Shown here: piece by piece, positions 4,186-59,203 of the stretch
Layout: each line of letters begins with the position of its first letter
Position numbering within the stretch: position 1 is the first letter of the stretch
Sequence record: PQ374922.1
Origin: a phage
Strand: one strand, 5' to 3'
DNA: 64,000 bases
Position numbers and translations under genes: made by a program
The notes under the pieces: generated by a model
Seen by the model: only the letters and a program-made list of their open reading frames with translations
Databases searched by the model: none
What the model was told of the DNA's origin: nothing

Positions 4186-4200
4186 TTATTGGAGCAGTTT

Positions 4201-4860
4201 ATGTCCTACTCCCTGAAGGGGTTGATGAAGCGCCCCGTCCACACATTCTTTAAACCACCAGTCGTAAAGGGGATCTATCCAGCACGAGGGCAAATCTACT
4301 ACGTCAAAGGCTCCAATGGTAGCGGTAAATCCACTGTACCGTCTCAGCTGGCGGAGAGGGATCCTCAGGCGTATGTCGTGACCCATAACGGCAAGGTAAT
4401 GCTGACTGTCTGTCCTTCGTTCAACGTGGTCTGTATCGGTAAATATGACAAGTCGAAGTCCAAGGGGGTTGATTCCCTGAAGGACACTGAGCAGATGTTG
4501 TTCGCGTTGTCTATTGCTGACCAACCAGAATACTTGAAATATGATGTGATTTTCGAAGGTATCATTCCATCCACATTATTGAGTTCTTGGATCCCCCGCC
4601 TGACGCGCCCACCACGTGAATTGGTTGTGCTCTTTATGGACACTCCCCTTGAAACGTGTATCTCCCGCGTTAAATCACGTAACGGTGGTGTGGAATTCAA
4701 TGAAAGTCTGGTGGTCGAGAAGTGGGAGAGAGTTCATGACCATCGTCAACGACATAAAGACTTGTTCCCTACGGTAGCTGCGGGTATGATGAAGTCTCAC
4801 GGCCTAACGGTAGACCAGGCTGTGATGGCATTCCTCTGTCGTGATTTTGGGAGTATCTGA
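4201..4860 (+). CDS. P-loop NTPase/kinase of unknown specificity
   Basis: Walker A GSNGSGKST near residue 40; ATG at 4201 with GGAGCAG RBS; stop overlaps the start of the next gene (TGATG). Confidence 0.65.
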   Translation: MSYSLKGLMKRPVHTFFKPPVVKGIYPARGQIYYVKGSNGSGKSTVPSQLAERDPQAYVVTHNGKVMLTVCPSFNVVCIGKYDKSKSKGVDSLKDTEQMLFALSIADQPEYLKYDVIFEGIIPSTLLSSWIPRLTRPPRELVVLFMDTPLETCISRVKSRNGGVEFNESLVVEKWERVHDHRQRHKDLFPTVAAGMMKSHGLTVDQAVMAFLCRDFGSI

Positions 4861-5906
4861 TGGAAATCAAAGCAATTAACAACAATGACATGTTGAAGCA
4901 GGCTGTCTTGGCTATCCGTGAATTCGGGATCGAATCTGATCCTGGTAATGCTGAAATCAATACTGATAGCACCCGCTTCCTTGATGGTGTGACTATCACT
5001 GTTTCCGATATTCGTGACCGCTGGCTCTCCGTTGAAGGTCGCAACTCATCGGCTATCGCTGCCATCGGCGAGACCTTCTGGGTGTTGTCAGGTCGCAACG
5101 ACATAAAGTTCCTGTCACGCGTATTGCCTCGCGCTGCTAACTTTTCGGATGATGGGGTAACATGGCGAGCTGCTTATGGTCCGCGTCTGTACGCCCATGG
5201 CCAGCTGGATAGCGTTATCAACCGCCTGCGCAAGAACCCAAACACTCGCCAGGCGTACCTCACTATTTATGATCCGGCTTTGGATTCGGATGCTGGTCTG
5301 GCGAAGTTCAGCGAGAGCGGCGAAGCGAAGACCAAGGACATGGTGTGTAACCTGGCTCTGTTGTTCGCCATCGTTGAAGGTCGTCTGAACCTGACGGTCA
5401 TCAATCGCTCACAGGATGTTCTGTGGGGGATGAGTTCAATAAACTTCATTGAGTTCTCTATTCTTCAGGAAGTGATTGCTCGGGTGCTGGACGTTGACGT
5501 CGGTCAGTACAAGCTATTCTCTAATAATCTTCATTACTACAACAATGAAGTCAGCCAGAAGCAGCTGGGAAAGATCACGAAGGACACCAAAGTAGAAGCT
5601 GGGTTCATCAACTCCATGATTCACTTCACGAACGTGACCAACCAGAACCATATCCGCAATCTGTTCACTGGTGTGCTTCATCACTGTGATATCGGCAGCC
5701 CGTGGGAAACTGTGGTCGCCCACCTGAAGGAATATGATGCTGATCGTGGCCTGATTGTACAGATGGCGTACTGTCTGCACTGCAAACTGAACGAAAAGCT
5801 CATTAACCTGGACCTGATTCAGGATCATGGCTTGAACACCGCGCTCACGCATTCCCCGGTTGACCGCAAGATCATTGATCCTAAGTTCCTGGAAGGTGTA
5901 GTATGA
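4860..5906 (+). CDS. Thymidylate-synthase-fold pyrimidine C5 hydroxymethylase-like enzyme (gp42-like, divergent)
   Basis: TS-fold motifs: ETFWVLSGRNDIKFL (cf. ELLWFIKGSTNAKEL), RQAYLTIYDP, candidate catalytic Cys163 in DMVCNL, then 20 residues to RSQD as in TS (R166/D169). The canonical PCH and PFNIAS motifs are not conserved and there is a roughly 100-aa C-terminal extension. Confidence 0.7.
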   Translation: MEIKAINNNDMLKQAVLAIREFGIESDPGNAEINTDSTRFLDGVTITVSDIRDRWLSVEGRNSSAIAAIGETFWVLSGRNDIKFLSRVLPRAANFSDDGVTWRAAYGPRLYAHGQLDSVINRLRKNPNTRQAYLTIYDPALDSDAGLAKFSESGEAKTKDMVCNLALLFAIVEGRLNLTVINRSQDVLWGMSSINFIEFSILQEVIARVLDVDVGQYKLFSNNLHYYNNEVSQKQLGKITKDTKVEAGFINSMIHFTNVTNQNHIRNLFTGVLHHCDIGSPWETVVAHLKEYDADRGLIVQMAYCLHCKLNEKLINLDLIQDHGLNTALTHSPVDRKIIDPKFLEGVV

Positions 5907-12953: not shown

Positions 12954-13066
12954 ATTTAATTGAGTTTGTCCTGAAGTCGTTCGCCTTTGGTCTGATAGCA
13001 TGCGGGATGATTACAGCTGTGCTTCTCATCATAGCCCTGGTCATCCCCTTTAAGAGGAAACGTTGA
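12950..13066 (+). CDS. Small hydrophobic protein (38 aa, one TM helix)
   Basis: ATGA overlap with the upstream stop and TGATG overlap with the downstream start; GAGGAA RBS; sequence MNLIEFVLKSFAFGLIACGMITAVLLIIALVIPFKRKR. Confidence 0.4.
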   Translation: MNLIEFVLKSFAFGLIACGMITAVLLIIALVIPFKRKR

Positions 13067-13278
13067 TGGAATGTTCATGCGGAGGGCAGGGCACAAGTGC
13101 TTACCTGCCATTCACCACTGTGAAGGAAGCCGAAGCCGCTGGATTTGCCGTGGACAAGGCTCCCTGTGTAATCGCCACGAAGGATTGCCCGTGCTGTAAG
13201 AGGCACTCTCAGGACGTCTTCTACGCCCCTGATGCGCGTCCGGCTACGGTCAACCTGCTCTCACTGATGAGGAAGTGA
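13066..13278 (+). CDS. Small Cys-rich protein (about 70 aa)
   Basis: CSCGG...CPCCKRH motifs; translationally coupled to the small TM ORF. Confidence 0.45.
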   Translation: MECSCGGQGTSAYLPFTTVKEAEAAGFAVDKAPCVIATKDCPCCKRHSQDVFYAPDARPATVNLLSLMRK

Positions 13279-44187: not shown

Positions 44188-45423
44188 TCAGCGTTTCAAG
44201 AGTGTCATGAGGTTGACGCTGCTGGACTTCGGCTTGTCCTCAACCTTGCGCACAGGCATCTTCAGGTTCGTACATACCTCGGACGGTTCCCAGCGCGTAC
44301 CCTTTTGCAGGTGCCAGATATGCAGAGGAACACCAGTCTCAAAGAACACAGGCATCTTCCACTTCTGGACGCCTGGAACGTGCCCTACAGGAGCCTTTTC
44401 GCACAACAGGGTATCTGGCAGCCAGAGCGAACGGGCTTCCCAGAGCGCTGCGCAGGAGTATTCAGGCCAGACGCGTTCCATGTAGTCTATCTCATCCCAG
44501 GTACGCTCTGCGTCCCACCCGATGTAACGGGTATTCTTCAGTCGGAAGAATTTCTTCAGCCAACAAGCGCCGGAGGTTTCAAAGTTCAGGCGGTTGATGA
44601 ACGTCAGGTGCCCGAACTCAGCCACACAATCCTGGAACGCCTGCTCAAGGTCGGCCTCAAGGATGTCACACTCTTCATCCGTGATAGCACAACCGTTGAT
44701 CTTTTTCTTCCCGTGTTTAGTCACCCAATCGTCACGGTTGGACAAGAACGCCGCGCCATTACGGTTGGACTCGCTTCCATCACGATCACGCAGCATGAAG
44801 CCAGGGACGTCAATGGTGTATTCGTTCCCGAAGACCATGTTCAGGGCTTCCAGGAAGTTCCAGGCGCTCAGGCGACCGAAGTATTTCCAGGACATCGCCG
44901 TGTCCCACAGCTGGGTGAATTGTTCTGTCTTATCGATGCACACCAACATCCCACGGAAAGCGTCATATTGAGTACGGCCAGCCAGCCAGTCAATATAGGA
45001 CTGAACACACGGGATCATCTTGGACTTGCGGTAGCGACAGTCGGTATCGAATCGCATGCGTTCAAAGTTCAGATTATACCAATCAGAGAAGCGCTGCATC
45101 TCTTCCTTAGACTGAGGCGGCACAGGGAACTCACTGTAGATCGTCCACGGTCCGACGGCGTTATAGCAACAACCCCACAGGAATGCCATCCAGATCTTGC
45201 GCTCGACTTTCTGTTCGAGGCTGATGCCTTCAGTGACTTCGATCGCATAGTCCATCAGACGCATCTGCTGGTTGTGCTCTTCTGTGTAGGACAGCGCCTC
45301 CACCCAAGCCTTGAGCAGGTACATGCGATTCTCAGGCTTGCGATAATCAACAGCCAGGTCAATCGGGTACTTCCATTCAGCCGGAGGCGTATAGCCCGTC
45401 GGCATTTTAGATAAATGATGCAT
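44188..45423 (-). CDS. Hypothetical enzyme-sized protein (411 aa, Trp/aromatic-rich)
   Basis: Long ORF, last in an operon with the P-loop kinase; no nucleotidyltransferase KxDG or other motif recognised. Confidence 0.6.
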   Translation of the reverse strand: MHHLSKMPTGYTPPAEWKYPIDLAVDYRKPENRMYLLKAWVEALSYTEEHNQQMRLMDYAIEVTEGISLEQKVERKIWMAFLWGCCYNAVGPWTIYSEFPVPPQSKEEMQRFSDWYNLNFERMRFDTDCRYRKSKMIPCVQSYIDWLAGRTQYDAFRGMLVCIDKTEQFTQLWDTAMSWKYFGRLSAWNFLEALNMVFGNEYTIDVPGFMLRDRDGSESNRNGAAFLSNRDDWVTKHGKKKINGCAITDEECDILEADLEQAFQDCVAEFGHLTFINRLNFETSGACWLKKFFRLKNTRYIGWDAERTWDEIDYMERVWPEYSCAALWEARSLWLPDTLLCEKAPVGHVPGVQKWKMPVFFETGVPLHIWHLQKGTRWEPSEVCTNLKMPVRKVEDKPKSSSVNLMTLLKR

Positions 45424-45784: not shown

Positions 45785-45984
45785 TTTGGTTCCTTGAATA
45801 TTTTGTAACCAGCAGCGCCGATAGACATCACCGCGCCAATACAGTACATCACAGTCACGTTCAACTTCTCTGAGGTTGTTAAGTCCAGAGGGGTGAAATG
45901 ATAGGCTAGGGCAGTACACATTGAAACGGCTGCCATAACCAGACCAATGAACAACAGATAATTAGACAACCGTTTCATGATCAC
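45781..45984 (-). CDS. Small membrane protein (67 aa, two TM helices)
   Basis: LLFIGLVMAAVSMCTALAY and VMYCIGAVMSIGAAGY; coupled to neighbours on both sides. Confidence 0.45.
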   Translation of the reverse strand: MIMKRLSNYLLFIGLVMAAVSMCTALAYHFTPLDLTTSEKLNVTVMYCIGAVMSIGAAGYKIFKEPK

Positions 45985-46898
45985 CCCTTCTTCATCAGGT
46001 CAAGGAGAGAGCGCGACGCTGCCTTCGTTGCTTCTGGCTGGGCGCTCGCCTTGGTTTTAGTTTTGGATGCCTTCTGCGGCTTCTCAGGGACTCTGTGCGC
46101 CAAAGGATCATGGCCGCCAACCTCACGAGTCATCGGATTGGTTTCACAGTAGGCGTAGAAGTCTTTGGTGTGTATGTCAACACCACGCAGTTCAGAGCGT
46201 ATCTGATGACAAATCGCATTACCCACAACCCACAGCGGGGCGTCGAACGGTAGTACCGCCAACTCGGACTGCTGTTTGGTCGTGAACTCCTGGGTGTTGG
46301 CATCCGGTGATTTATACAGGATATCCTGTCCGCTGTAATCATCAACAGCCACAGTGAAGCCCAGCGCCAGCATTTCGGCCTTCGACTTCTCAAACTCCTT
46401 GTAGTAAGATTCGTTGCGCGACCAGCCGGAGTTCCCTGCTTCTTTACCAGATCGACCACGGATACGAGCATCGTACTGATAGCGGTCGGGGTACGCAAAG
46501 TACAGCAGCGCCAATGATTCAATCGGATAGTTCTTGAACATCCATTCAGGACGCCATTTGTCCGACAGCATGAGAGGTTCGCCCTCGCACACCAGAGTGT
46601 ATCCCTGAACCAACCAGCACTTGATTAGATCACGAGCAATATCGCCTGAGCCTGTAGCAGCATGGATTGCATCCATTGAAGTCCAGGAAGCCAGGCCGGA
46701 TTTGTTAGACACGGTGTACTGTCCAACGAAGATTAACTTCAGCTCTCCGAACTTCAAGCCAAACGGGCGAGTCTTGTCACCAACGGTGTAGGTCAGTTCG
46801 GTAGGCTCCAGCTTCGTACGGAGCCATTCGATGAACTGGACCACTCTCGTACCCTTGCCCGTGGCCGAGGTGCCTTTCACTACAATTATTTTAGCCAT
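45981..46898 (-). CDS. P-loop kinase-like protein (305 aa) with Lys/Ala/Thr-rich C-terminal tail
   Basis: N-terminal Walker A VKGTSATGKGT; no HAD DxDGT motif, so not a T4 Pnkp-type bifunctional enzyme. Confidence 0.6.
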   Translation of the reverse strand: MAKIIVVKGTSATGKGTRVVQFIEWLRTKLEPTELTYTVGDKTRPFGLKFGELKLIFVGQYTVSNKSGLASWTSMDAIHAATGSGDIARDLIKCWLVQGYTLVCEGEPLMLSDKWRPEWMFKNYPIESLALLYFAYPDRYQYDARIRGRSGKEAGNSGWSRNESYYKEFEKSKAEMLALGFTVAVDDYSGQDILYKSPDANTQEFTTKQQSELAVLPFDAPLWVVGNAICHQIRSELRGVDIHTKDFYAYCETNPMTREVGGHDPLAHRVPEKPQKASKTKTKASAQPEATKAASRSLLDLMKKG

Positions 46899-47577
46899 TT
46901 AATATTCTCCAACCGAGACATGTTTTAGCCCTACCTTTCAAGAGATTCGTTATATTACCGGAAGGGAGGCCATATTGAAGTTCCATGTCGCACCTCCTTA
47001 ACTCAACGATGCGACCATCTTTGTGCTGCCATTTGTAAATCTTTTCATCGCGACCAGGACCAATGTCTATCAGACCAAGAGCATGCAGCCTCTTCCTAGT
47101 TTCCCCTCCACGCGTTTGAGATTCAGAGGAAGGTCTTGGTGGTTTGGGGATCTTCCCTTCTGACATCAATTTGCTTATGATCTTACCCTTTCTGGCTTGT
47201 GCTTCAGGGGTGAGTCTTGGTGGAGGTTTAATCTTACCTTCAGCGATCAAACGTTTGCGGGTTGCGGCGCTCTTTGCGGATGACTCTGGCGTGGCCAATG
47301 GAGGCTTTCCACCCCCGACGACCATGTTGTAGCACCACCCAGAGTCAAGGATCTCCTGGCAGACCAGTTCAGACTCTATCTGAAGGATAACCGAATCTTT
47401 CCCTCGGAACAGAACTTCAAACTTGAACTGGTCTTCACCGTATTTCTTGAACGCTCGTTGTAATGCAATGCTTCCCTGACCACACTTATGCTCAGCCAAC
47501 CGCCTATCCGGTTCTGAGGTGACACCGACATAGAATTTATGATTGACGAGATTCGTTATCAGGTAGAGCGATAGCAT
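46891..47577 (-). CDS. GIY-YIG homing endonuclease (Seg-like)
   Basis: YLITNLVNHKFYVGVTSEPDRRLAEHK...FKKYGEDQFKFEVL (GIY-YIG); C-terminal repeated GKIKPPPRLTPE / GKIPKPPRPSSE DNA-binding-like modules. Confidence 0.85.
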   Translation of the reverse strand: MLSLYLITNLVNHKFYVGVTSEPDRRLAEHKCGQGSIALQRAFKKYGEDQFKFEVLFRGKDSVILQIESELVCQEILDSGWCYNMVVGGGKPPLATPESSAKSAATRKRLIAEGKIKPPPRLTPEAQARKGKIISKLMSEGKIPKPPRPSSESQTRGGETRKRLHALGLIDIGPGRDEKIYKWQHKDGRIVELRRCDMELQYGLPSGNITNLLKGRAKTCLGWRILNG

Positions 47578-49071: not shown

Positions 49072-52071
49072 TCAACCTTTCTTCTTTTGCATCATGGCAA
49101 GAAGGTTCACACGGCGCTTGTGTGACCAGCCGACCACGTCGAGGATAGACTGAATCGGATCAATGAAGGACTTCTCAAAGGCCGCCTGATAATCCACCCA
49201 TTTGCCCAGACCAAGCTCCTCGGGGAAGAACTCAGGATATGCAAAGTAGTTCTGCCCAAACGGGTTGCCCGGCTTCAACAACACCATCTGTACCTTATCA
49301 CCCGACTCGATCATCGGTAGACCCAGATCTTCGTTCTTCTCAACCAGACGGTTGTAGCCCACACACGCCTTGGCAGCAAAATGAGCACCAGATATAAACG
49401 AGCCGTCAGCAGCCACACACTTCTCTATGTCGGACACGCCTGACGCCTTGGCGATATCGTCTACAGAGAGTTTCATGTACTCCTCTTTGTACTGGGAGAT
49501 GAGCGTCTGTACTTCCTCTTCGGTGCCGAGTAGGATCTTCTCATAGCACTTGACAAGGCGCTCACGACACCATTCCGGCGTGGTGGACTTGCGGGCTTCC
49601 AGACCTTTGAACTTGATCTTCGGCTTCTCGTACTTGATACCCTCACTGTCGTACACGGCCATGGCATACATCTTCTTGGCTCGCCAGACAGCGGCTGACG
49701 CAATGACCTCACGCTCCCACACCATGCGCTGTTCAAATCCGTTCATGGTGTTACACAGAAGCTGTGCCCACTCATTGGTCTTCGGCTGGTAGTTGTCTTT
49801 GATCCATTGGTCGATATTATCAACCATAGCATGATGGTCAGTAACATCAGGCCACAACTGCTTGACAAGACGCTCAATGCAGATGTAGTTGGAGTCGGTA
49901 TCCCCTGCGATGACGAAGTCCTGGCCTGTTGTACCACACAGCTTGTTCAGATAGTCATCAGTGTAACGCTTGTTCCACTTGTTGATCAGCTGACCGGATG
50001 TGGTGATGGCTTCGGCAATGTTGAGGTTGAAGTACTCTTTGAACCAGACGTTCGAGATAGCGCCATAACCTGCGTTCATCAAGATCTTCAGACCTTGCTG
50101 TAGGGTATCTTGAGCGACGCCCAGGTCTTCCCACTTCTTCATCACTTCGGTCAGGGCATCAAGATCAATGTTCTTGTGCTCTTCATACCACTCTGGGTCA
50201 TAGTAGCGAGACTTTATGGCAGACTCAAGATGGAAGTCGCCCTTCGACATCTCTTTACACCAACCAGCCCACTGCTCATACTTCAGACCCTTGGCCTTCT
50301 CTACTTTACGGTCGCTGTAGATACCACGCATGATTTCAGACAGGAACGACATCTTCTCGTTGCTGAAGAATTGAACGTTCGGCGTGAACGACACGTTGTA
50401 GCGGCGCAGGGTTTCAAAGTGGAACTCACCCAGGGCAACCAACTCATCAACAACCTGCAGGCGTTCGTCAACCGCACGCAACATCTTGTCGTGAAGGGCT
50501 TTCATCAACCGACGTTTGTGCATCGGCGTTGCCATGTTATTCATCTGAGCAGCCAGCTCTTCACACATAGCCTCAATAATCTCGCGGCGCTGGTGTTTGT
50601 CGCCAACGATAGTCTCTGGACCGAGGTTGTACTGCTGTATGATGTGAGGATACAGGGAGTTCAAATCTTCCGAGAAGACCCAGAAGTAGATTCCTGGTGT
50701 CACATCCATGACGTATGCACCCTCAAAGTCGGTCGGACCATCGTATACACGCTGGATCTTAGGCACTATCCCCTTCTCGTACAGGCGATAGTAGCACATG
50801 GCCAGCCACGGAGCCACAGTGCCCAGACCGTCTTCATAGTTGGACTTGGTGCGGTAGGCCAGGACGAACATCAGCTGGAGCAGGCGCAGCTTCTGTTCAA
50901 GTCGCCATACCAGCTTAACGTCTTTGATACCATATCGGGTGTGTTTGCAGTAGTCGTTGAAGTACAGATCAAAGAGCGACTTGCTCTCACTGTAGTCCAT
51001 CTTCTTCTCACCCAGCTCACAATACGCAATCCAGTCAAGAGAGTAGCGTTCACGGGTGGTGTACGTGTGTTTCTTGTAGATCTGCATATAATCGAGCATA
51101 GGGCAACCCACGAACTGATACGTCGTGATATCGCCCTTCTTATCGCGAATGATACGCTTCTTAATGATACCCCAAGGACTGAGGCGCGACGTTTCAGCCT
51201 CACCCAGAACCTGATTCATGCGCTCAACAAGATAAGGGCTATCAAACGTCTCAATGTTCCAGCCTGTCCAGCCGTCGAACTGACGCTGTGACCAGAAGTC
51301 AAGGAACGAGCGCAGCAGATCTTGTTCGGTGGTGAACTCCTGATAAACAACCTCAAGACCGCCGATCTCTTTGTCTTCGGTGTCGTATGCGAATTTGTTA
51401 CGATCTTTGGCACAGGGCATACCCCAGACCATGAACTTATTGGTCGCCATATCCTGAAGCTGGATCAGGGTAATGGGGAACGCCGCATTCATGTCTTGGG
51501 TGATCTTGCCGTTGCTGTCAATGATAGGGAACTGATCAGTGACGTTGTTGCTGATGAAAGAACCAGGGAAGTGCTCACGGACAAAATCATGGTTGGCCAG
51601 AACTTGTTTATGGAAGCGGCGAATGCGCGCCTCATTCCCTTTGAACGTCTGCTGCTCAATGGTTGGGTGAGGGAATGGACCTTTGGTCATCTTTCCATCT
51701 TTCCACCCGGCGGAGAACACTTCGATATCGAGGTTAGCAATATGGATGTTGGAATAATCCGGCTCAATCTTTCCAGGAAAGCTATGGGCGATGAACTGGT
51801 ATGCATAATCGGTCTGCCCGTAAATGGCCGCACCCTGGACTTCCTTGTACTCTTCAAGATAGTTGTCAGCGTCACGCATGGAAGGGAACTGCTTGGCTAC
51901 CAGGGGTTCATTGAGAAGGCCGACCTTTTCAACATTTGAATAGTCAGCCGTGGGTAAATAGAGAGTGGGTTCGAATTTCTTTTTCAACAGACGGCGATTA
52001 CCCATGTCATCTGCAATTCGAATCAACAGGTCATTGCCCCTGCGGGCAACGTTCGTATAGAAAACGGTCAT
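49072..52071 (-). CDS. 43: DNA polymerase (gp43, family B) with 3'-5' exonuclease domain
   Basis: Exo I ANLDIEVF, Pol motif A DLNSLYPHII, motif C AGDTDSNYIC; overall collinear with T4 gp43. Confidence 0.95.
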   Translation of the reverse strand: MTVFYTNVARRGNDLLIRIADDMGNRRLLKKKFEPTLYLPTADYSNVEKVGLLNEPLVAKQFPSMRDADNYLEEYKEVQGAAIYGQTDYAYQFIAHSFPGKIEPDYSNIHIANLDIEVFSAGWKDGKMTKGPFPHPTIEQQTFKGNEARIRRFHKQVLANHDFVREHFPGSFISNNVTDQFPIIDSNGKITQDMNAAFPITLIQLQDMATNKFMVWGMPCAKDRNKFAYDTEDKEIGGLEVVYQEFTTEQDLLRSFLDFWSQRQFDGWTGWNIETFDSPYLVERMNQVLGEAETSRLSPWGIIKKRIIRDKKGDITTYQFVGCPMLDYMQIYKKHTYTTRERYSLDWIAYCELGEKKMDYSESKSLFDLYFNDYCKHTRYGIKDVKLVWRLEQKLRLLQLMFVLAYRTKSNYEDGLGTVAPWLAMCYYRLYEKGIVPKIQRVYDGPTDFEGAYVMDVTPGIYFWVFSEDLNSLYPHIIQQYNLGPETIVGDKHQRREIIEAMCEELAAQMNNMATPMHKRRLMKALHDKMLRAVDERLQVVDELVALGEFHFETLRRYNVSFTPNVQFFSNEKMSFLSEIMRGIYSDRKVEKAKGLKYEQWAGWCKEMSKGDFHLESAIKSRYYDPEWYEEHKNIDLDALTEVMKKWEDLGVAQDTLQQGLKILMNAGYGAISNVWFKEYFNLNIAEAITTSGQLINKWNKRYTDDYLNKLCGTTGQDFVIAGDTDSNYICIERLVKQLWPDVTDHHAMVDNIDQWIKDNYQPKTNEWAQLLCNTMNGFEQRMVWEREVIASAAVWRAKKMYAMAVYDSEGIKYEKPKIKFKGLEARKSTTPEWCRERLVKCYEKILLGTEEEVQTLISQYKEEYMKLSVDDIAKASGVSDIEKCVAADGSFISGAHFAAKACVGYNRLVEKNEDLGLPMIESGDKVQMVLLKPGNPFGQNYFAYPEFFPEELGLGKWVDYQAAFEKSFIDPIQSILDVVGWSHKRRVNLLAMMQKKKG

Positions 52072-53644: not shown

Positions 53645-53668
53645 AGAAAGGGGCTTAACGCCCCTTTT
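53645..53668. terminator. Bidirectional hairpin terminator between convergent genes
   Basis: aggggc-ttaac-gcccct flanked by an A-run and a T-run. Confidence 0.55.
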
Positions 53669-53669
53669 C

Positions 53670-54128
53670 TTATTCTTCCCAGAAGTCTTCGTCGTCCCCG
53701 ACAGCAGCCAGTTCCGTGTCCAGTTCTTCATCGGTAAACGGTGGCAGCACCCCGTTCTGAATCAGATAATCCATCTCATCGTCTTCCAGCTGCAGGTCGG
53801 TGGCAATATACAGCGCTCCGCTGCCCTCTTCGTCCGTCTCGATACTGTACGAAGTGTATGGCACCCCATTCACTGTAATGATGATAGAGGTCGGATCCTT
53901 AGGATCTACGTGCGCCTCGAACGGCACGCCATCAATCGGTGCATCTTCCAGGAAGGTGGCAAGTGCTACGGCGGCGCGGACAACATCAGTGCCTTCAACG
54001 CCTGCATAGATCTCTTCCGCGCCTGTCTCTTCACGATCAAACAGCTCAATCGTGATACCGTCTTGAACACCAGTCCATACAGGGATGTCATTGGTGTATT
54101 CTGATTCAAACAATTTGGAGGTTGGCAT
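53670..54128 (-). CDS. Hypothetical highly acidic protein (152 aa)
   Basis: ATG with GAGGAA RBS; CCTAAATACCCC motif about 30 nt upstream. Confidence 0.5.
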   Translation of the reverse strand: MPTSKLFESEYTNDIPVWTGVQDGITIELFDREETGAEEIYAGVEGTDVVRAAVALATFLEDAPIDGVPFEAHVDPKDPTSIIITVNGVPYTSYSIETDEEGSGALYIATDLQLEDDEMDYLIQNGVLPPFTDEELDTELAAVGDDEDFWEE

Positions 54129-54272: not shown

Positions 54273-55466
54273 TCAGGAAGGGGTGAATTCGTTTACAGGT
54301 ACTGCTTCGGGGATAGCCAGTTCAGGACATGCTGCCTTCATCGGCTCGATGTATGGCTTGCTACCCACAATCCAGAACAGAGTGTTCTCGTTGAGCAACT
54401 CGGGCTTGTGTTGCTGAACCCAGGTCATGACCTTGCCTTCATAGCGAGGGTGCAACTCAATATCACCCCACTGATATTCCATCAGGTCATTGTAACGAAC
54501 CCAATTAGTGGTATGAAGATCCCAATGGTGTACCTCAAAGCGAGGAAGCACGACCTCTGGCTCTTCCTTCTGCCTGATACCACTTAGGAGGCCAGCCAGC
54601 GAAACGCTCTTAGAGGCATGCTGAAGCTCCTTCTTGCCGTGTACATAGTCTGGGTTGTCGTGATAGCGACGGGTGAAGTCGACAATGTGCGGCAGATTGG
54701 CATGTTTGCCGATGATGCGCAGACGGCTCTCAATGAAGTCCAGGCGGTTCGGACCGATGCCAATCAGATACACACGCTTCAGATTAGGCTTCGGATGCAT
54801 TGCCAGCCCGGTCAGAATGCTTGTGCAAGAGTTGCACGATCCGGCTGGGATAATCAGATCGGTAATATGGTCAGGGATGTTGGCAACCTGCTCGCCACCC
54901 AGCATATGGAAGCCAGCGATGCGCTCAGGAGAATGCGCTGTATGGTCGAGGGTGATACCATATTCCAGATAATACGCCTTTGGATTCTGTTGTTCGATCA
55001 ACTTCTTACAGCGCGGCTGGATCGTGCTGTTGTAACCCGAGCCGACGAAGTTGAACTCACTACCAAACCAGGCTGACATTGCCACCATGTCGTGGTTCAT
55101 ACAGGTGGTGGGTTTGGTCGCTCCGAGTACAGTGGTTGTCTTGCCGCCGAAGTGCCGAGAGACTGCTGTCGCCATAGGGGACTGCGGACTACCAACGACA
55201 GTACCATGGATGATGTCAGGGGAGCCTCCGGCCTTGAGGTGCTCAACCATCAACCAGATGGCCTGGCGGAGTTTGCTGCCGTTGATGCCCTGCTGGCCAT
55301 TTGCATAATTGGATAGCGGCGCAAAATAATCTTCACGCTTGAACCAGACCTGCTGGTTGGTTTCGGGGTTGACGACAAGTTCGCACGGGGTGTGCTTGTA
55401 GAGATAATCTTCCCAATGGACCAGGTTGCGGTCGAGGGAAAGGGTATCGAAGATGGTCTTGTTCAT
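54273..55466 (-). CDS. PLP-dependent enzyme of the tryptophan-synthase-beta fold (ACC deaminase / D-cysteine desulfhydrase-like)
   Basis: WFKREDYFAPL...NGSKLRQAIWLM (cf. DcyD FIKRDD...GGNKLRKLEFL, with Lys as the PLP-binding residue) and Gly-rich IIPAGSCNSCTS (cf. IPVGGSNALG). Confidence 0.6.
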   Translation of the reverse strand: MNKTIFDTLSLDRNLVHWEDYLYKHTPCELVVNPETNQQVWFKREDYFAPLSNYANGQQGINGSKLRQAIWLMVEHLKAGGSPDIIHGTVVGSPQSPMATAVSRHFGGKTTTVLGATKPTTCMNHDMVAMSAWFGSEFNFVGSGYNSTIQPRCKKLIEQQNPKAYYLEYGITLDHTAHSPERIAGFHMLGGEQVANIPDHITDLIIPAGSCNSCTSILTGLAMHPKPNLKRVYLIGIGPNRLDFIESRLRIIGKHANLPHIVDFTRRYHDNPDYVHGKKELQHASKSVSLAGLLSGIRQKEEPEVVLPRFEVHHWDLHTTNWVRYNDLMEYQWGDIELHPRYEGKVMTWVQQHKPELLNENTLFWIVGSKPYIEPMKAACPELAIPEAVPVNEFTPS

Positions 55467-55535
55467 TCTATTTCTCCTGTAGACATTGGCTTATCATAGC
55501 GTATCTACAGGAATATAGAAAAGGAGAATCTCGGA

Positions 55536-56192
55536 TTACTTCTTGAACAGACGAAGGAACTTCATCATGTTTTCCATGAAAGTCGGCTTCTTGACCTTTT
55601 GTTTTACCGGAGCGCCCTGATCATTCAGAACACGACTGGCCGGAGGAGTAGGCGGTGTCGGCGCTTTCGTTTCACAGGCTGGAACGATGTTCACGTCATG
55701 ATGAGAAGACTCAGATGTAGTGTTAACAACATTGTTCTCCTGGACGACAGGCTTGACGAGATTCTTTTCGTACTCACGCGCCATGGCCTGATACATCAGA
55801 TTCAAATCCACCAGATCAACAGACTTGACCTTGCGACGACGCCAATTGGCGCTTTCTTCGCCATAGAAATCATATCCGTTTCTGATCAGCCAGTGTACGG
55901 CTTGTTCAAACGAACCGAAGACCATAAGTGGAGCGCCCTGGCCTTTCTCAGATTGTTCCAGGCTACCATAACCCATCAACACAACCTGGTCTTTGATACT
56001 CAAATCAAACGTCATACCAAGGTTCGGGATGTTTTTATCGCGGCGGAAGAACCCGCCATCACGGTAGACGTAAACAGGCGACAGGAACTCATTCAGAGTA
56101 CGCTTGACACCCTTGTATCGGAAGAGTCTGACAATTGGAGGGGTGTCATGGGAAATCACTTCGTTCAATTCCCAGATAGAAACATTACGCAT
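55536..56192 (-). CDS. Hypothetical protein (218 aa) with Pro/Thr-rich linker
   Basis: ORF; PTPPTPPAS linker near the C-terminus. Confidence 0.5.
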   Translation of the reverse strand: MRNVSIWELNEVISHDTPPIVRLFRYKGVKRTLNEFLSPVYVYRDGGFFRRDKNIPNLGMTFDLSIKDQVVLMGYGSLEQSEKGQGAPLMVFGSFEQAVHWLIRNGYDFYGEESANWRRRKVKSVDLVDLNLMYQAMAREYEKNLVKPVVQENNVVNTTSESSHHDVNIVPACETKAPTPPTPPASRVLNDQGAPVKQKVKKPTFMENMMKFLRLFKK

Positions 56193-56320: not shown

Positions 56321-56347
56321 AAAAGAAAGCCGGATAGGATATCCGGC
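56321..56347 (-). terminator. Rho-independent terminator for the minus-strand tRNA-region transcript
   Basis: gccggata-gga-tatccggc hairpin followed on the minus strand by a T-run. Confidence 0.45.
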
Positions 56348-56564
56348 TATACCACATCGATGGGATGGGTTGAAAGACTACACGCTTGCACTGGTACTAC
56401 CCTATGGGAGAGCGCGTCAGGAGTCGAACCTGAAGTCGTCGACGTAGAGAAAGCTATTTGCATTTCACTATCCTCGCCGCGATTTTCTTAACTTCCTAAA
56501 CACCCGATTACGAGAGAGTCGACATGCACATCTTCTAACTCTTCAGGAAGTCACGCCCGTAATT

Positions 56565-56653
56565 TGGCGGAAGGTGAAGGATTCGAACCTTCGGGGGCTA
56601 AAAGCCCCACTCGATTAGCAGTCGAGTCCCTTAAACCTCTCGGGCAACCTTCC
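56565..56653 (-). tRNA. tRNA-Ser (anticodon GCU)
   Basis: Cloverleaf folded by eye: acceptor GGAAGGT/ACCTTCC, D-arm CCC/GGG, anticodon stem CTCGA/TCGAG with loop CTGCTAA, long variable arm GGGGCTTTTAGCCCC, T-arm GAAGG-TTCGAAT-CCTTC, encoded CCA. Confidence 0.85.
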
Positions 56654-56906
56654 AATTTGGACGGGCTTCACACCCGATTGAGCATTTGATCTGCCGTAGC
56701 CCAACTCCCCGCGCTTCTCAGCGCCGATTGGTTAACTGGCGACCAGTGCCTTCTGGTTCAATCTCCTGGAACTTTACAGGCTTTGCGCCCGACCATTTCT
56801 GGAAGTTGGGGCATCGTTTCCGATGCGGAGTCATCCCCATTTTATACACAGCTGGCTGCAACGCTTACTGTGTTTGTCGGAGTGTCATGTTTCACACCCC
56901 TTAACA

Positions 56907-56983
56907 TGGTGATCCTGATTGGGTTTGAACCAATGACCAATGAATTATGAGTTCACTGCTCTAACCGACTGAGCTACAGGACC
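56907..56983 (-). tRNA. tRNA-Met (anticodon CAU; elongator Met or Ile-lysidine type)
   Basis: Cloverleaf: acceptor GGTCCTG/CAGGATC, D-arm GCTC-AGTCGGTTA-GAGC, anticodon loop CTCATAA, T-arm ATTGG-TTCAAAC-CCAAT, encoded CCA. Confidence 0.85.
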
Positions 56984-59203
56984 AAATTATTGTGTACCAA
57001 CCAAGGACTGTCAACCCTTTATCCCGTTTGTGCATGATCAGTTCATGCATGCCTGTTTGTGCGCCTCACGGCATGCGCTTCTGTGGGTCTTTGGCTTGCA
57101 CCATAGCCTCGCCACAGGCGTTTATTTTTCCAGGGCTTTCCACTTACAAGTCTTAACCAGACCGGGATACGGGCTTGTAAGATCGGGTTGGACACAACTT
57201 TGATAGCTCTGGTACTAAAGATCCCGCGTCACCCATAGACATGGTTTATAAAATCCAGAGCCATCAAAGTTGCAACCAAATGTTACAACTCGCAGCTTCT
57301 ATGTAGAAGCAACTTGTCCTCTAACGCTCGGACCAAACGAGGCTGGCTGGTTGATTCAGAGCCGCTGGTTGCTCCAGCAAGCATGGGTTGATAGCCCGGC
57401 AACATAGAATCACCCAAAGATGAAGAACATTCATGACTCACATCACACCACGAATGGCCTGAAAGAGAATCGAACTCTTTAATGCTCTTCATTTTGTGAA
57501 CTTGAGAATACTACGCCTGTCTCGGGTTTCCCCTTAGTTCGGCCTCCCAGTCCTCGCCGCGCCGGGTAGCTAACCCTGATGGCTCGTCTGCTACTGAGTT
57601 CTTCTTGGTGCCCACCAGTGTCCGGAATGTGTAGGCATCGCAATCTGCAAGGCATGGTCTATTTCACCCAATGCTCTCTCAAGTTCACAAATCGAAGTGC
57701 CCTGACTCAACAGTATGGCCCAATATGCTGTTATCGTCCACCGGATTGGCCGCCCAATTTGTAGATCAACCTTTGGGTTTAAGATAAATTGCCAAGGCAC
57801 TTCGATTTGTGTGCCCTTCACCTGCCAGGGATCAGGGCTGATGGCAAGACTTCGCTCACATCTTTCAAGATACTCGTGAGAATATCCTCAAAGATGTGGT
57901 GCCGTTTTAGGGAGTCGAACCCAAATGTTCGGCCAGCGTTGACCTTACATCCCATCTGACTTAGGCAACCCACCTCTGCTTACTCAGGAGATTATCCCCT
58001 TTGGACAGTCAGATGTAACGGCATTTTATTTAACAATTCATTCAACTGATAACTTCAGGGGACCACTCTCATCTCCCCACATTTCGACCGCCCGGGACGG
58101 TTTAGTGGTACGTCACTTGGTCTGTTACACGGTAGGAGCCGATTCTCCCTCGAATTACCTCTTGTTCGTATGCCTACAAACAATTTCACAGATTGCTGAC
58201 AAGTTATCATGTGAATGAATTGTCATTGTATGCCCTGACTTATTAATCACATCTCAGGGCCGCGATGCGCCAGATTCTGTTACAGGGAACTGGAATACCC
58301 CGCTGACTTATAGGCTATTACGCCGCCATCAGAACTTCGGAATCATTAGCATTTATTTGCTTGGTCAGTTTCTAAAAACCCGCAAAGTCACGCACAACGA
58401 AAACCTGTTTGAGTCCTAAACGTACCTGTCTTAGTTCACAACGCTATGAGTGACCAGGACTCAAACAGCTTGCCGTTCAGTGGGTTAACTATACTTTGTA
58501 ACCCGTTATTGATAAAACCTTTTATTTTGTTGGCGAGGGTGCCACCATCGTTTTGCCGGAACTTACGCATCCGGCCTCGCCTGTTGGTGCTCCTTCGAAT
58601 CCGGGAAGATCAGCAGGAACTATGAATCAAGTTAATTCTACCAACAGGAGCCTGTGTTGCCCTTTGACGCAACATTATGAACCCTCTACGAAGACTCATA
58701 ATGTTGTCGGCGTGATGGAACCTGGCAGATCCGTCCTCCCCTATATGTTGGTGTCGACTCGCCAACGGGGCGCTCTCAAGCATCTGAGCTAATCACGCTA
58801 CAACAGGGGGTTTCGTTCTCCGACGGTCAGTGCGTCCACCGACACCAGCGAGGTTGATATTACGCCTCTATTCGTCACGGTGCCCTGAGACTGGGCTTTC
58901 CTGGTTTCGGGTTCCAGCCCTACTACCACCGCGCTATTCGCCTCGTGTTTAATACTTTACTACAGCCCAGCTAATTTGAAAAATCCTCTCCTCTTTGAGC
59001 TACACTGCCCACAGCAGTGCGGACGAACCTTCACTCAAAACCGGATGCGCCGAAGTGGGCGTCTGTTTACCAGACTGATCGGGTAGACCCAGGAGAGTAA
59101 AGGTAATCCCGATCAGGAGGATGAGGAGTAACATCATGTAAAACATAGTGTTCCCTCCCTTCCATGCAACTAACTTTACTGCAATTCTTTATTGAATAAA
59201 GCG

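Follow-up and report, generated by a model that had tools for sequence, protein, structure and literature searches.

The closest described system is that of Salmonella phage ViI (Vi01), of which five proteins, including gp226, rebuilt 5-(2-aminoethoxy)methyl-2'-deoxyuridine (5-NeOmdU) on 5-hmdU DNA in mixed lysates (Lee et al., 2018 PNAS, PMC5889632). According to a later paper (Lee et al., 2021 NAR, PMC8989533), purified gp226 is yellow, absorbs at 410-425 nm and turns O-serinylthymidine in DNA into a 301 u nucleoside. The same paper reports that one labelled carbon is lost when a substrate derived from 13C3,15N-serine is treated with gp226, that a +44 u intermediate accumulates in the reaction without gp226, and that K92 was proposed, from modelling, as the Schiff-base lysine. 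5-NeOmdU has been measured in the DNA of ViI and CBA120, and the modification genes are described in a 2024 review as highly conserved throughout the Ackermannviridae (PMC11721090). A 2026 preprint reports 5-NeOmdU, together with a matching gene set that includes a 'PLP-dependent decarboxylase', in the Ackermannviridae phage phiHS2.

The window analysed here, a stretch of 64,000 nucleotides with a G+C content of about 50% over its whole length, carries at 54273..55466, on the minus strand, a single long ORF that starts with ATG and encodes 397 aa, according to the ORF listing of the window. The start is well defined, as AGGAG lies 8 nt and an in-frame stop 27 nt 5' of the ATG. The encoded protein is 92% identical to ViI gp226 (also named Vi01_182, orf00226 and YP_004327553) over a gap-free alignment (363/394 residues); none of the 31 substitutions falls at an invariant position, and the Shine-Dalgarno (SD) sequence and start context are shared, whereas the 27-residue segment that follows Met-Asn in ViI is missing here. 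In every test of gp226-family membership that was run here, the sequence behaved as that of a member. We are therefore highly confident, from sequence comparison, that this gene encodes the gp226 ortholog, a PLP-dependent O-serinylthymidine (DNA) decarboxylase and the final enzyme of 5-NeOmdU hypermodification in Ackermannviridae. The enzyme itself is already known: the 92%-identical gp226 has been biochemically characterised and assayed as an O-serinylthymidine decarboxylase, and the finding is thus not a new one.

The gene is widespread among related phages. DNA-level matches of more than 80% identity are found in 267 Ackermannviridae genomes (from Salmonella, Klebsiella, Escherichia, Dickeya and others) and protein-level matches in 348 phage records, the top DNA match being the Agtrevirus-like Salmonella phage vB_CECAV_050 (97.5% identity) and the top protein match Enterobacter phage fGh-Ecl02 (99.2%). 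The initial annotation had placed the gene in a T4-like phage, which holds only loosely: by its best DNA matches the phage belongs to the Ackermannviridae and is Agtrevirus-like, with T4-type replication and structural genes, yet it is no T-even phage. The enzyme family is, as had been pointed out, not part of the T4 gene set.

The decarboxylase gene is part of a minus-strand unit of three genes (ORF218, the PLP gene and the acidic ORF152), flanked by terminator-like hairpins at 56328-56348 and 53647-53667, at a distance of 2.2 kb from the DNA polymerase gene. The gene order is shared with ViI, with an ORF218 homolog upstream and the acidic ORF, polymerase, kinase 2 and transferase genes downstream; ViI only has an extra ORF, Vi01_183, between the decarboxylase gene and the acidic ORF. 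Both neighbours belong to protein groups of unknown function. The 152-aa protein encoded 3' of the decarboxylase (53670-54128, minus strand; PHROG 3852, like ViI Vi01_184) ends in ..DDEDFWEE, and its acidic composition recalls DNA-mimic or anti-restriction proteins. The 218-aa protein encoded 5' (55536-56192, minus strand; PHROG 4050) contains a Pro/Thr-rich linker and has a basic-hydrophobic tail, ..KKPTFMENMMKFLRLFKK, the corresponding end of ViI Vi01_181 being ..SRKSFFRRLMDFLTK. Further along the window, two tRNA genes (Ser-GCT and Met-CAT) are found at 56565-56983, versus five in vB_CECAV_050 (Ser, Tyr, Asn, Trp and Met), and the approximately 2.2 kb that follow them (56984-59203) contain no ORF of at least 100 aa and no Rfam match.

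The initial annotation had assigned the product to the ACC deaminase/D-cysteine desulfhydrase (DcyD) type of PLP fold, on the basis of an FKRED segment, an NGSKLR segment and a Gly-rich loop. All of these are present in the ORF, as F42-K43-R44-E45-D46, N62-G63-S64-K65-L66-R67 and the Gly/Ser-rich P207-A-G-S-C-N-S213. A search against Pfam PALP (PF00291), which had been proposed as a check, does give a match (E 3.1e-7), but its 30.5 bits stay below the curated gathering cut-off of 35 and it spans only positions 8-202 of the 295 of the profile. PHROG 3650, labelled 'unknown function', is matched over residues 1-397 (E 7e-240). No NCBIfam family is matched at E <=0.01 by the decarboxylase or its two neighbours, and direct phmmer comparison of the decarboxylase sequence with the PDB gives no match, so that the family has to be assigned by profile or structure comparison.

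A large protein collection yielded 430 homologs; 41 homologs with identity down to 42% were aligned to assess conservation, and K43, R44, D46, K65, R67, S93, P94, Q95, G209, N212, H339, P340, Y342, E343 and K345 are invariant in this alignment. When the 41-homolog profile is compared with the PDB, ACC deaminases come out on top (1rqx, E 3e-6; 1f2d; 1j0a), followed by the D-cysteine desulfhydrase 4d8t. K65 (codon at 55272..55274, minus strand), the predicted Schiff-base (internal aldimine) lysine, is aligned with the Schiff-base lysine K51 of 1rqx, S93 with S78 and Q95 with Q80; the fold proposed initially is thus recovered, and the catalytic lysine, for which a check had been advised, is present. 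In a second stretch of the profile alignment, which alone is not significant, Y342-E343 face Y294-E295 of ACC deaminase; they belong to the HPxYEGK motif H339-P-R-Y342-E343-G-K345 (codons at 54432..54452, minus strand), aligned with P-V-Y294-E295-G-K of ACC deaminase. A tryptophan-synthase-beta-like two-domain fold was recognised, with the lysine at a helix N-terminus and a Gly/Ser-rich phosphate loop. The AlphaFold model from the single sequence (pLDDT 35) was replaced by an alignment-based one, in which residues 271-310 form the sole low-confidence loop (pLDDT 46-63).

Judged from these matches, the likeness to PLP enzymes is more than a coincidence. The decarboxylase belongs to the fold-type II PLP enzymes and is closest in structure to ACC deaminase and D-cysteine desulfhydrase. 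It is nevertheless a relative of these enzymes by structure that stands outside their family, since no NCBIfam model is matched, identity is only 13-18% and the ortholog uses DNA-bound serine. As for threonine dehydratase or ammonia-lyase, neither a match to a family model nor a closest structural similarity to such enzymes was observed. By analogy with ACC deaminase, in which E295 is the equivalent residue, and given established PLP chemistry, we infer that the invariant E343 would keep the pyridine nitrogen protonated and serve as an electron sink for decarboxylation. The model suggests that an active site of the ACC-deaminase type has been re-used for decarboxylation. To our knowledge, there is no solved structure of a DNA-acting PLP decarboxylase.

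The region 5' of the gene (55467..55535, minus strand) is itself conserved. It contains a -10-like box, TATGAT, and a hairpin (55466-55520) in which the Shine-Dalgarno AGGAG is paired. The leader RNA folds with -23.1 kcal/mol (z -4.3), none of 200 shuffles being equally stable. The leader is near-identical across four Ackermannviridae genera (Agtre-, Kutter-, Limestone- and Taipeivirus), and those of phiEa2809 and phiMAM1 retain only the ATTCTCCTT..TAT and -10-like TAnnAT boxes. This element may act as a promoter, in the control of translation, or in both ways. The leader box ATTCTCCTTnnnTAT was also considered as a repeated phage promoter, which is unsupported as it occurs once in the window. 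The N-terminus that follows (55458-55466) is an indel hot spot: straight after Met-Asn, 27 extra codons are found in ViI and 14 in Klebsiella phage May, the SD and start being unchanged. The possibility that the 424-aa ViI annotation has an over-extended start was rejected by the leader alignment; as ViI shares both the SD and ATG-AAC, its 27 codons are a true insertion. Because of these 27 extra N-terminal residues, K92 of ViI gp226 corresponds to K65 here.

The initial annotation had also mentioned modification-like genes elsewhere in the window, and these are indeed found: the kinases, the serine:DNA transferase and a probable dUMP hydroxymethylase all lie in the same window as the decarboxylase gene. 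The serine:DNA transferase (AADT/aGPT-Pplase2; 44188..45423, minus strand) is 89% identical to gp247, of which it is the ortholog, and matches Pfam ADDT (PF18724, E 1e-59). 5-hmdU DNA kinase 2 (45981..46898, minus strand), the gp243 ortholog, is 84% identical to gp243 and matches Pfam HMUD2 (PF18747, E 3e-157). 5-hmdU DNA kinase 1, of the ViI gp67 type (4189..4860, plus strand), matches HMUDK_HMUD1 (PF18748, E 6e-109) and is adjoined by a thymidylate-synthase homolog (4860..5906, plus strand; Pfam Thymidylat_synt, E 1e-15). The latter scores 57.8 bits, far under the NCBIfam equivalog cut-offs of 108-427 (e.g., 327), which fits a dUMP hydroxymethylase; from PMC5889632 and the phiHS2 preprint, it is the probable supplier of 5-hmdU. 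Nucleotide-pool genes are present in the window as well (of the dUTPase_2 and NT5C types according to Pfam, and a dNMP kinase according to the vB_CECAV_050 annotation). A tblastn search found no ortholog of gp160 (aGPT-Pplase1) in the window; as in ViI, it lies in another part of the genome.

A GIY-YIG homing-endonuclease-like ORF of 228 aa (46891-47577, minus strand) lies directly 5' of kinase 2, with an 8-nt overlap. ViI has no homing-endonuclease ORF at this junction, the distant Vibrio phage D503 has one there that overlaps the kinase gene, and in vB_CECAV_050 the GIY-YIG ORF and kinase 2 are annotated as a single 1599-nt 'endonuclease' CDS.

Taken with the ViI work, this gene set would correspond to a four-step pathway. 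The thymidylate-synthase-like enzyme would form 5-hydroxymethyl-dUMP, which would replace dT on incorporation; after replication, the 5-hmdU DNA kinases would put a phosphate on the hydroxymethyl group in DNA, and the gp247-ortholog transferase would swap this phosphate for the side-chain oxygen of free L-serine, giving O-serinylthymidine. The decarboxylase would then act on the serine tethered to DNA, whose free alpha-amine would form an external aldimine with the PLP that K65 holds, and the alpha-carboxylate would be lost as CO2 to yield 5-(2-aminoethoxy)methyl-dU. The modified base would shield the phage genome against restriction endonucleases.

One alternative to this role is that of an auxiliary metabolic gene, acting as ACC deaminase, D-cysteine desulfhydrase or threonine dehydratase on free amino acids; the initial annotation had left the choice open between such a gene and a DNA tailoring enzyme, and had suggested ACC, D-Cys and L/D-Ser as substrates. 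The nearest solved structures are indeed those of ACC deaminase and D-cysteine desulfhydrase, and GenBank uses the names 'threonine dehydratase' and 'threonine ammonia lyase'. Identity to those enzymes is however only 13-18%, no NCBIfam model for them is matched, and the 92%-identical gp226 decarboxylates DNA-bound serine, the actual substrate being serine ether-linked to thymine in duplex DNA rather than any of the compounds suggested, and the reaction an alpha-decarboxylation rather than a deamination or desulfhydration (PMC8989533). Moreover, the linkage of the family with ADDT and kinase genes extends to distant phages: distant metagenomic homologs (40-46% identity) adjoin ADDT, Tet_JBP, radical-SAM and ParB genes, and such sets of neighbours correspond to other thymidine-hypermodification clusters, as in PMC13229309 and PMC8989533. 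As its distant members lie in such clusters, the family as a whole goes with the tailoring of DNA bases and not with the metabolism of free amino acids. Since the gene is a gp226 ortholog with pathway partners in the window, the tailoring option is retained, and a small-molecule enzyme is barely credible.

Two further readings keep the PLP fold. In one of them, enzyme class and DNA-tailoring role would be the same, with another substrate or product, such as a different amino-acid adduct made by an altered transferase. The transferase is not fully identical to gp247 (89%), and 5-NeOmdU content differs among Ackermannviridae (approximately 40% in ViI, PMC11721090; 16% in phiHS2, preprint). Yet all the invariant active-site residues are kept, a switch in specificity is unlikely at 92% and 89% identity, and the modification genes are highly conserved family-wide (PMC11721090), which makes this reading highly improbable. 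In the other, the protein would be a catalytically dead member of the fold, serving as a scaffold or DNA-binding subunit; the sub-threshold Pfam score could be quoted in its favour, and nothing specific besides. Given that all 41 homologs keep the lysine, the residues of the phosphate loop and the YEGK motif unchanged, and that gp226 binds PLP and is active (PMC8989533), its probability is practically negligible. O-serinylthymidine decarboxylation in DNA is hence the function retained below.

Beyond this function, the locus shows a peptide shared by several of its proteins. The DNA polymerase (999 aa; 49072..52071, minus strand), the transferase and kinase 2 have alike C-terminal tails, ..RRVNLLAMMQKKKG, ..SSSVNLMTLLKR and ..SRSLLDLMKKG, each preceded by a low-complexity basic linker (tail sites at 49072-49116, 44188-44230 and 45981-46020, respectively). 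The motif can be written approximately as ..S/R-V-N/S-L-L/M-x-L/M-L/M-K-K (..SVNLLxLMKK). A cysteine-rich ORF of 71 aa (13063-13278) has the C-terminal end ..TVNLLSLMRK (site at 13234-13278), and ViI gp160 ends in ..GSVNLLDRLKKPE. The pattern [NS]L[LM].[LM][LM] gives 5 matches in the 85 likely proteins of the window, versus a mean of 0.31 after residue shuffling, and four of the five lie <=14 residues from the C-terminus, where the shuffle mean is 0.02. When one position is relaxed, exactly one match is added among the 85 proteins, at S289-L294 of the decarboxylase (KSVSLAGLLSG). This internal copy (S285-R298, SKSVSLAGLLSGIR; codons at 54573..54614, minus strand) lies inside the low-confidence loop, so that a short hydrophobic peptide common to the polymerase tail is found in a flexible segment of the decarboxylase. 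The tail of the 218-aa protein bears a loose likeness to the motif.

The tails and the loop change together in other lineages. In phiMAM1 and phiEa2809, the decarboxylase loop and the three tails (of polymerase, kinase 2 and transferase) have related versions of the motif. In D503, ..K[KR]KLW or ..KRLW forms the C-terminal end of four proteins (polymerase, kinase 2, transferase and a further one), KTRRLFGG stands in the decarboxylase loop, and [KR][KR]L[WF] occurs in only five places in the 46 proteins of the locus, namely these four tails and the decarboxylase loop. In TET-type clusters, the PLP homolog lacks the loop, and the transferase and its neighbours also lack such tails. This co-variation of tails and loop across lineages points to a docking partner shared by these proteins.

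Polymerases of the T4/RB69 type bind the sliding clamp through their extreme C-terminus. T4 alpha-glucosyltransferase, too, binds a sliding clamp, gp45 (Sommer et al., 2004; PMC13216743), and on these two grounds the clamp is proposed as the partner, an analogy to which we give about an even chance. The motif is absent from the tails of the late sigma factor and RNase H of ViI, two further T4-type partners of the clamp, and this neither favours nor excludes the clamp. One interesting possibility, for and against which we find the balance equal, is thus that the hypermodification enzymes dock on one replisome hub, most likely a gp45-type clamp, via a peptide of the polymerase-tail type; the C-terminal tail would serve for this in the transferase, kinase 2 and the gp160 paralog, and the disordered loop 285-298 in the decarboxylase. 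A literature search found no published link between the sliding clamp and these thymidine-hypermodification enzymes, and no earlier description of the motif shared by polymerase, kinase 2, transferase and decarboxylase; the word 'clamp' is absent from PMC8989533.

The value of the gene itself lies in its correct annotation as the characterised last step of 5-NeOmdU synthesis. Its names in public records are 'threonine dehydratase', 'threonine ammonia lyase' or just 'hypothetical protein', and the public annotation of the whole 5-NeOmdU pathway is out of date: the thymidylate-synthase homolog (4860-5906) is annotated as 'thymidylate synthase' in relatives, and the PHROGs that kinases 1 and 2 match are named 'terminase small subunit' and 'guanylate kinase', respectively. 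Through 5-NeOmdU, Ackermannviridae DNA resists most type II restriction enzymes, which is relevant to phage therapy candidates and to the sequencing and cloning of Ackermannviridae genomes. The shared docking motif is the sole element that merits follow-up. If it were confirmed, the 5-NeOmdU pathway would be tethered to the replisome and hypermodification physically coupled to replication; this might bear on why thymidines are only partly modified and provide a handle to uncouple modification from replication.

Three known systems, besides ViI, can be compared with this locus. T4 alpha-glucosyltransferase provides a precedent for a post-replicative DNA-modifying enzyme tethered to the clamp in a T4-type replisome; it is unrelated in enzyme and chemistry, and clamp docking is proposed here from the co-varying peptide motif. 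ACC deaminase and D-cysteine desulfhydrase (1rqx, 1f2d, 1j0a and 4d8t), although closest in structure, are only 13-18% identical to the decarboxylase, which is longer by approximately 60 residues, located in an N-terminal segment and in loop 271-310. Unlike them, it would act on a DNA-borne amino acid, by alpha-decarboxylation instead of ring-opening deamination or beta-elimination. Finally, gp52 of Pseudomonas phage M6 is a PLP-dependent C-alpha-glycinylthymidine decarboxylase, which makes 5-NedU. It is a remote relative (E 7e-4 and probability 27% in hhalign, with no significant BLASTP match), is shorter (278 aa vs 397) and is devoid of the HPxYEGK motif; the linkage in its substrate is C-C, and it needs a radical-SAM isomerase upstream (PMC8989533). 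In the lysine region both enzymes nevertheless have KRED..APL..SK, M6 K36 being aligned with K65, and M6 gp52, too, decarboxylates a thymine-tethered amino acid in DNA.
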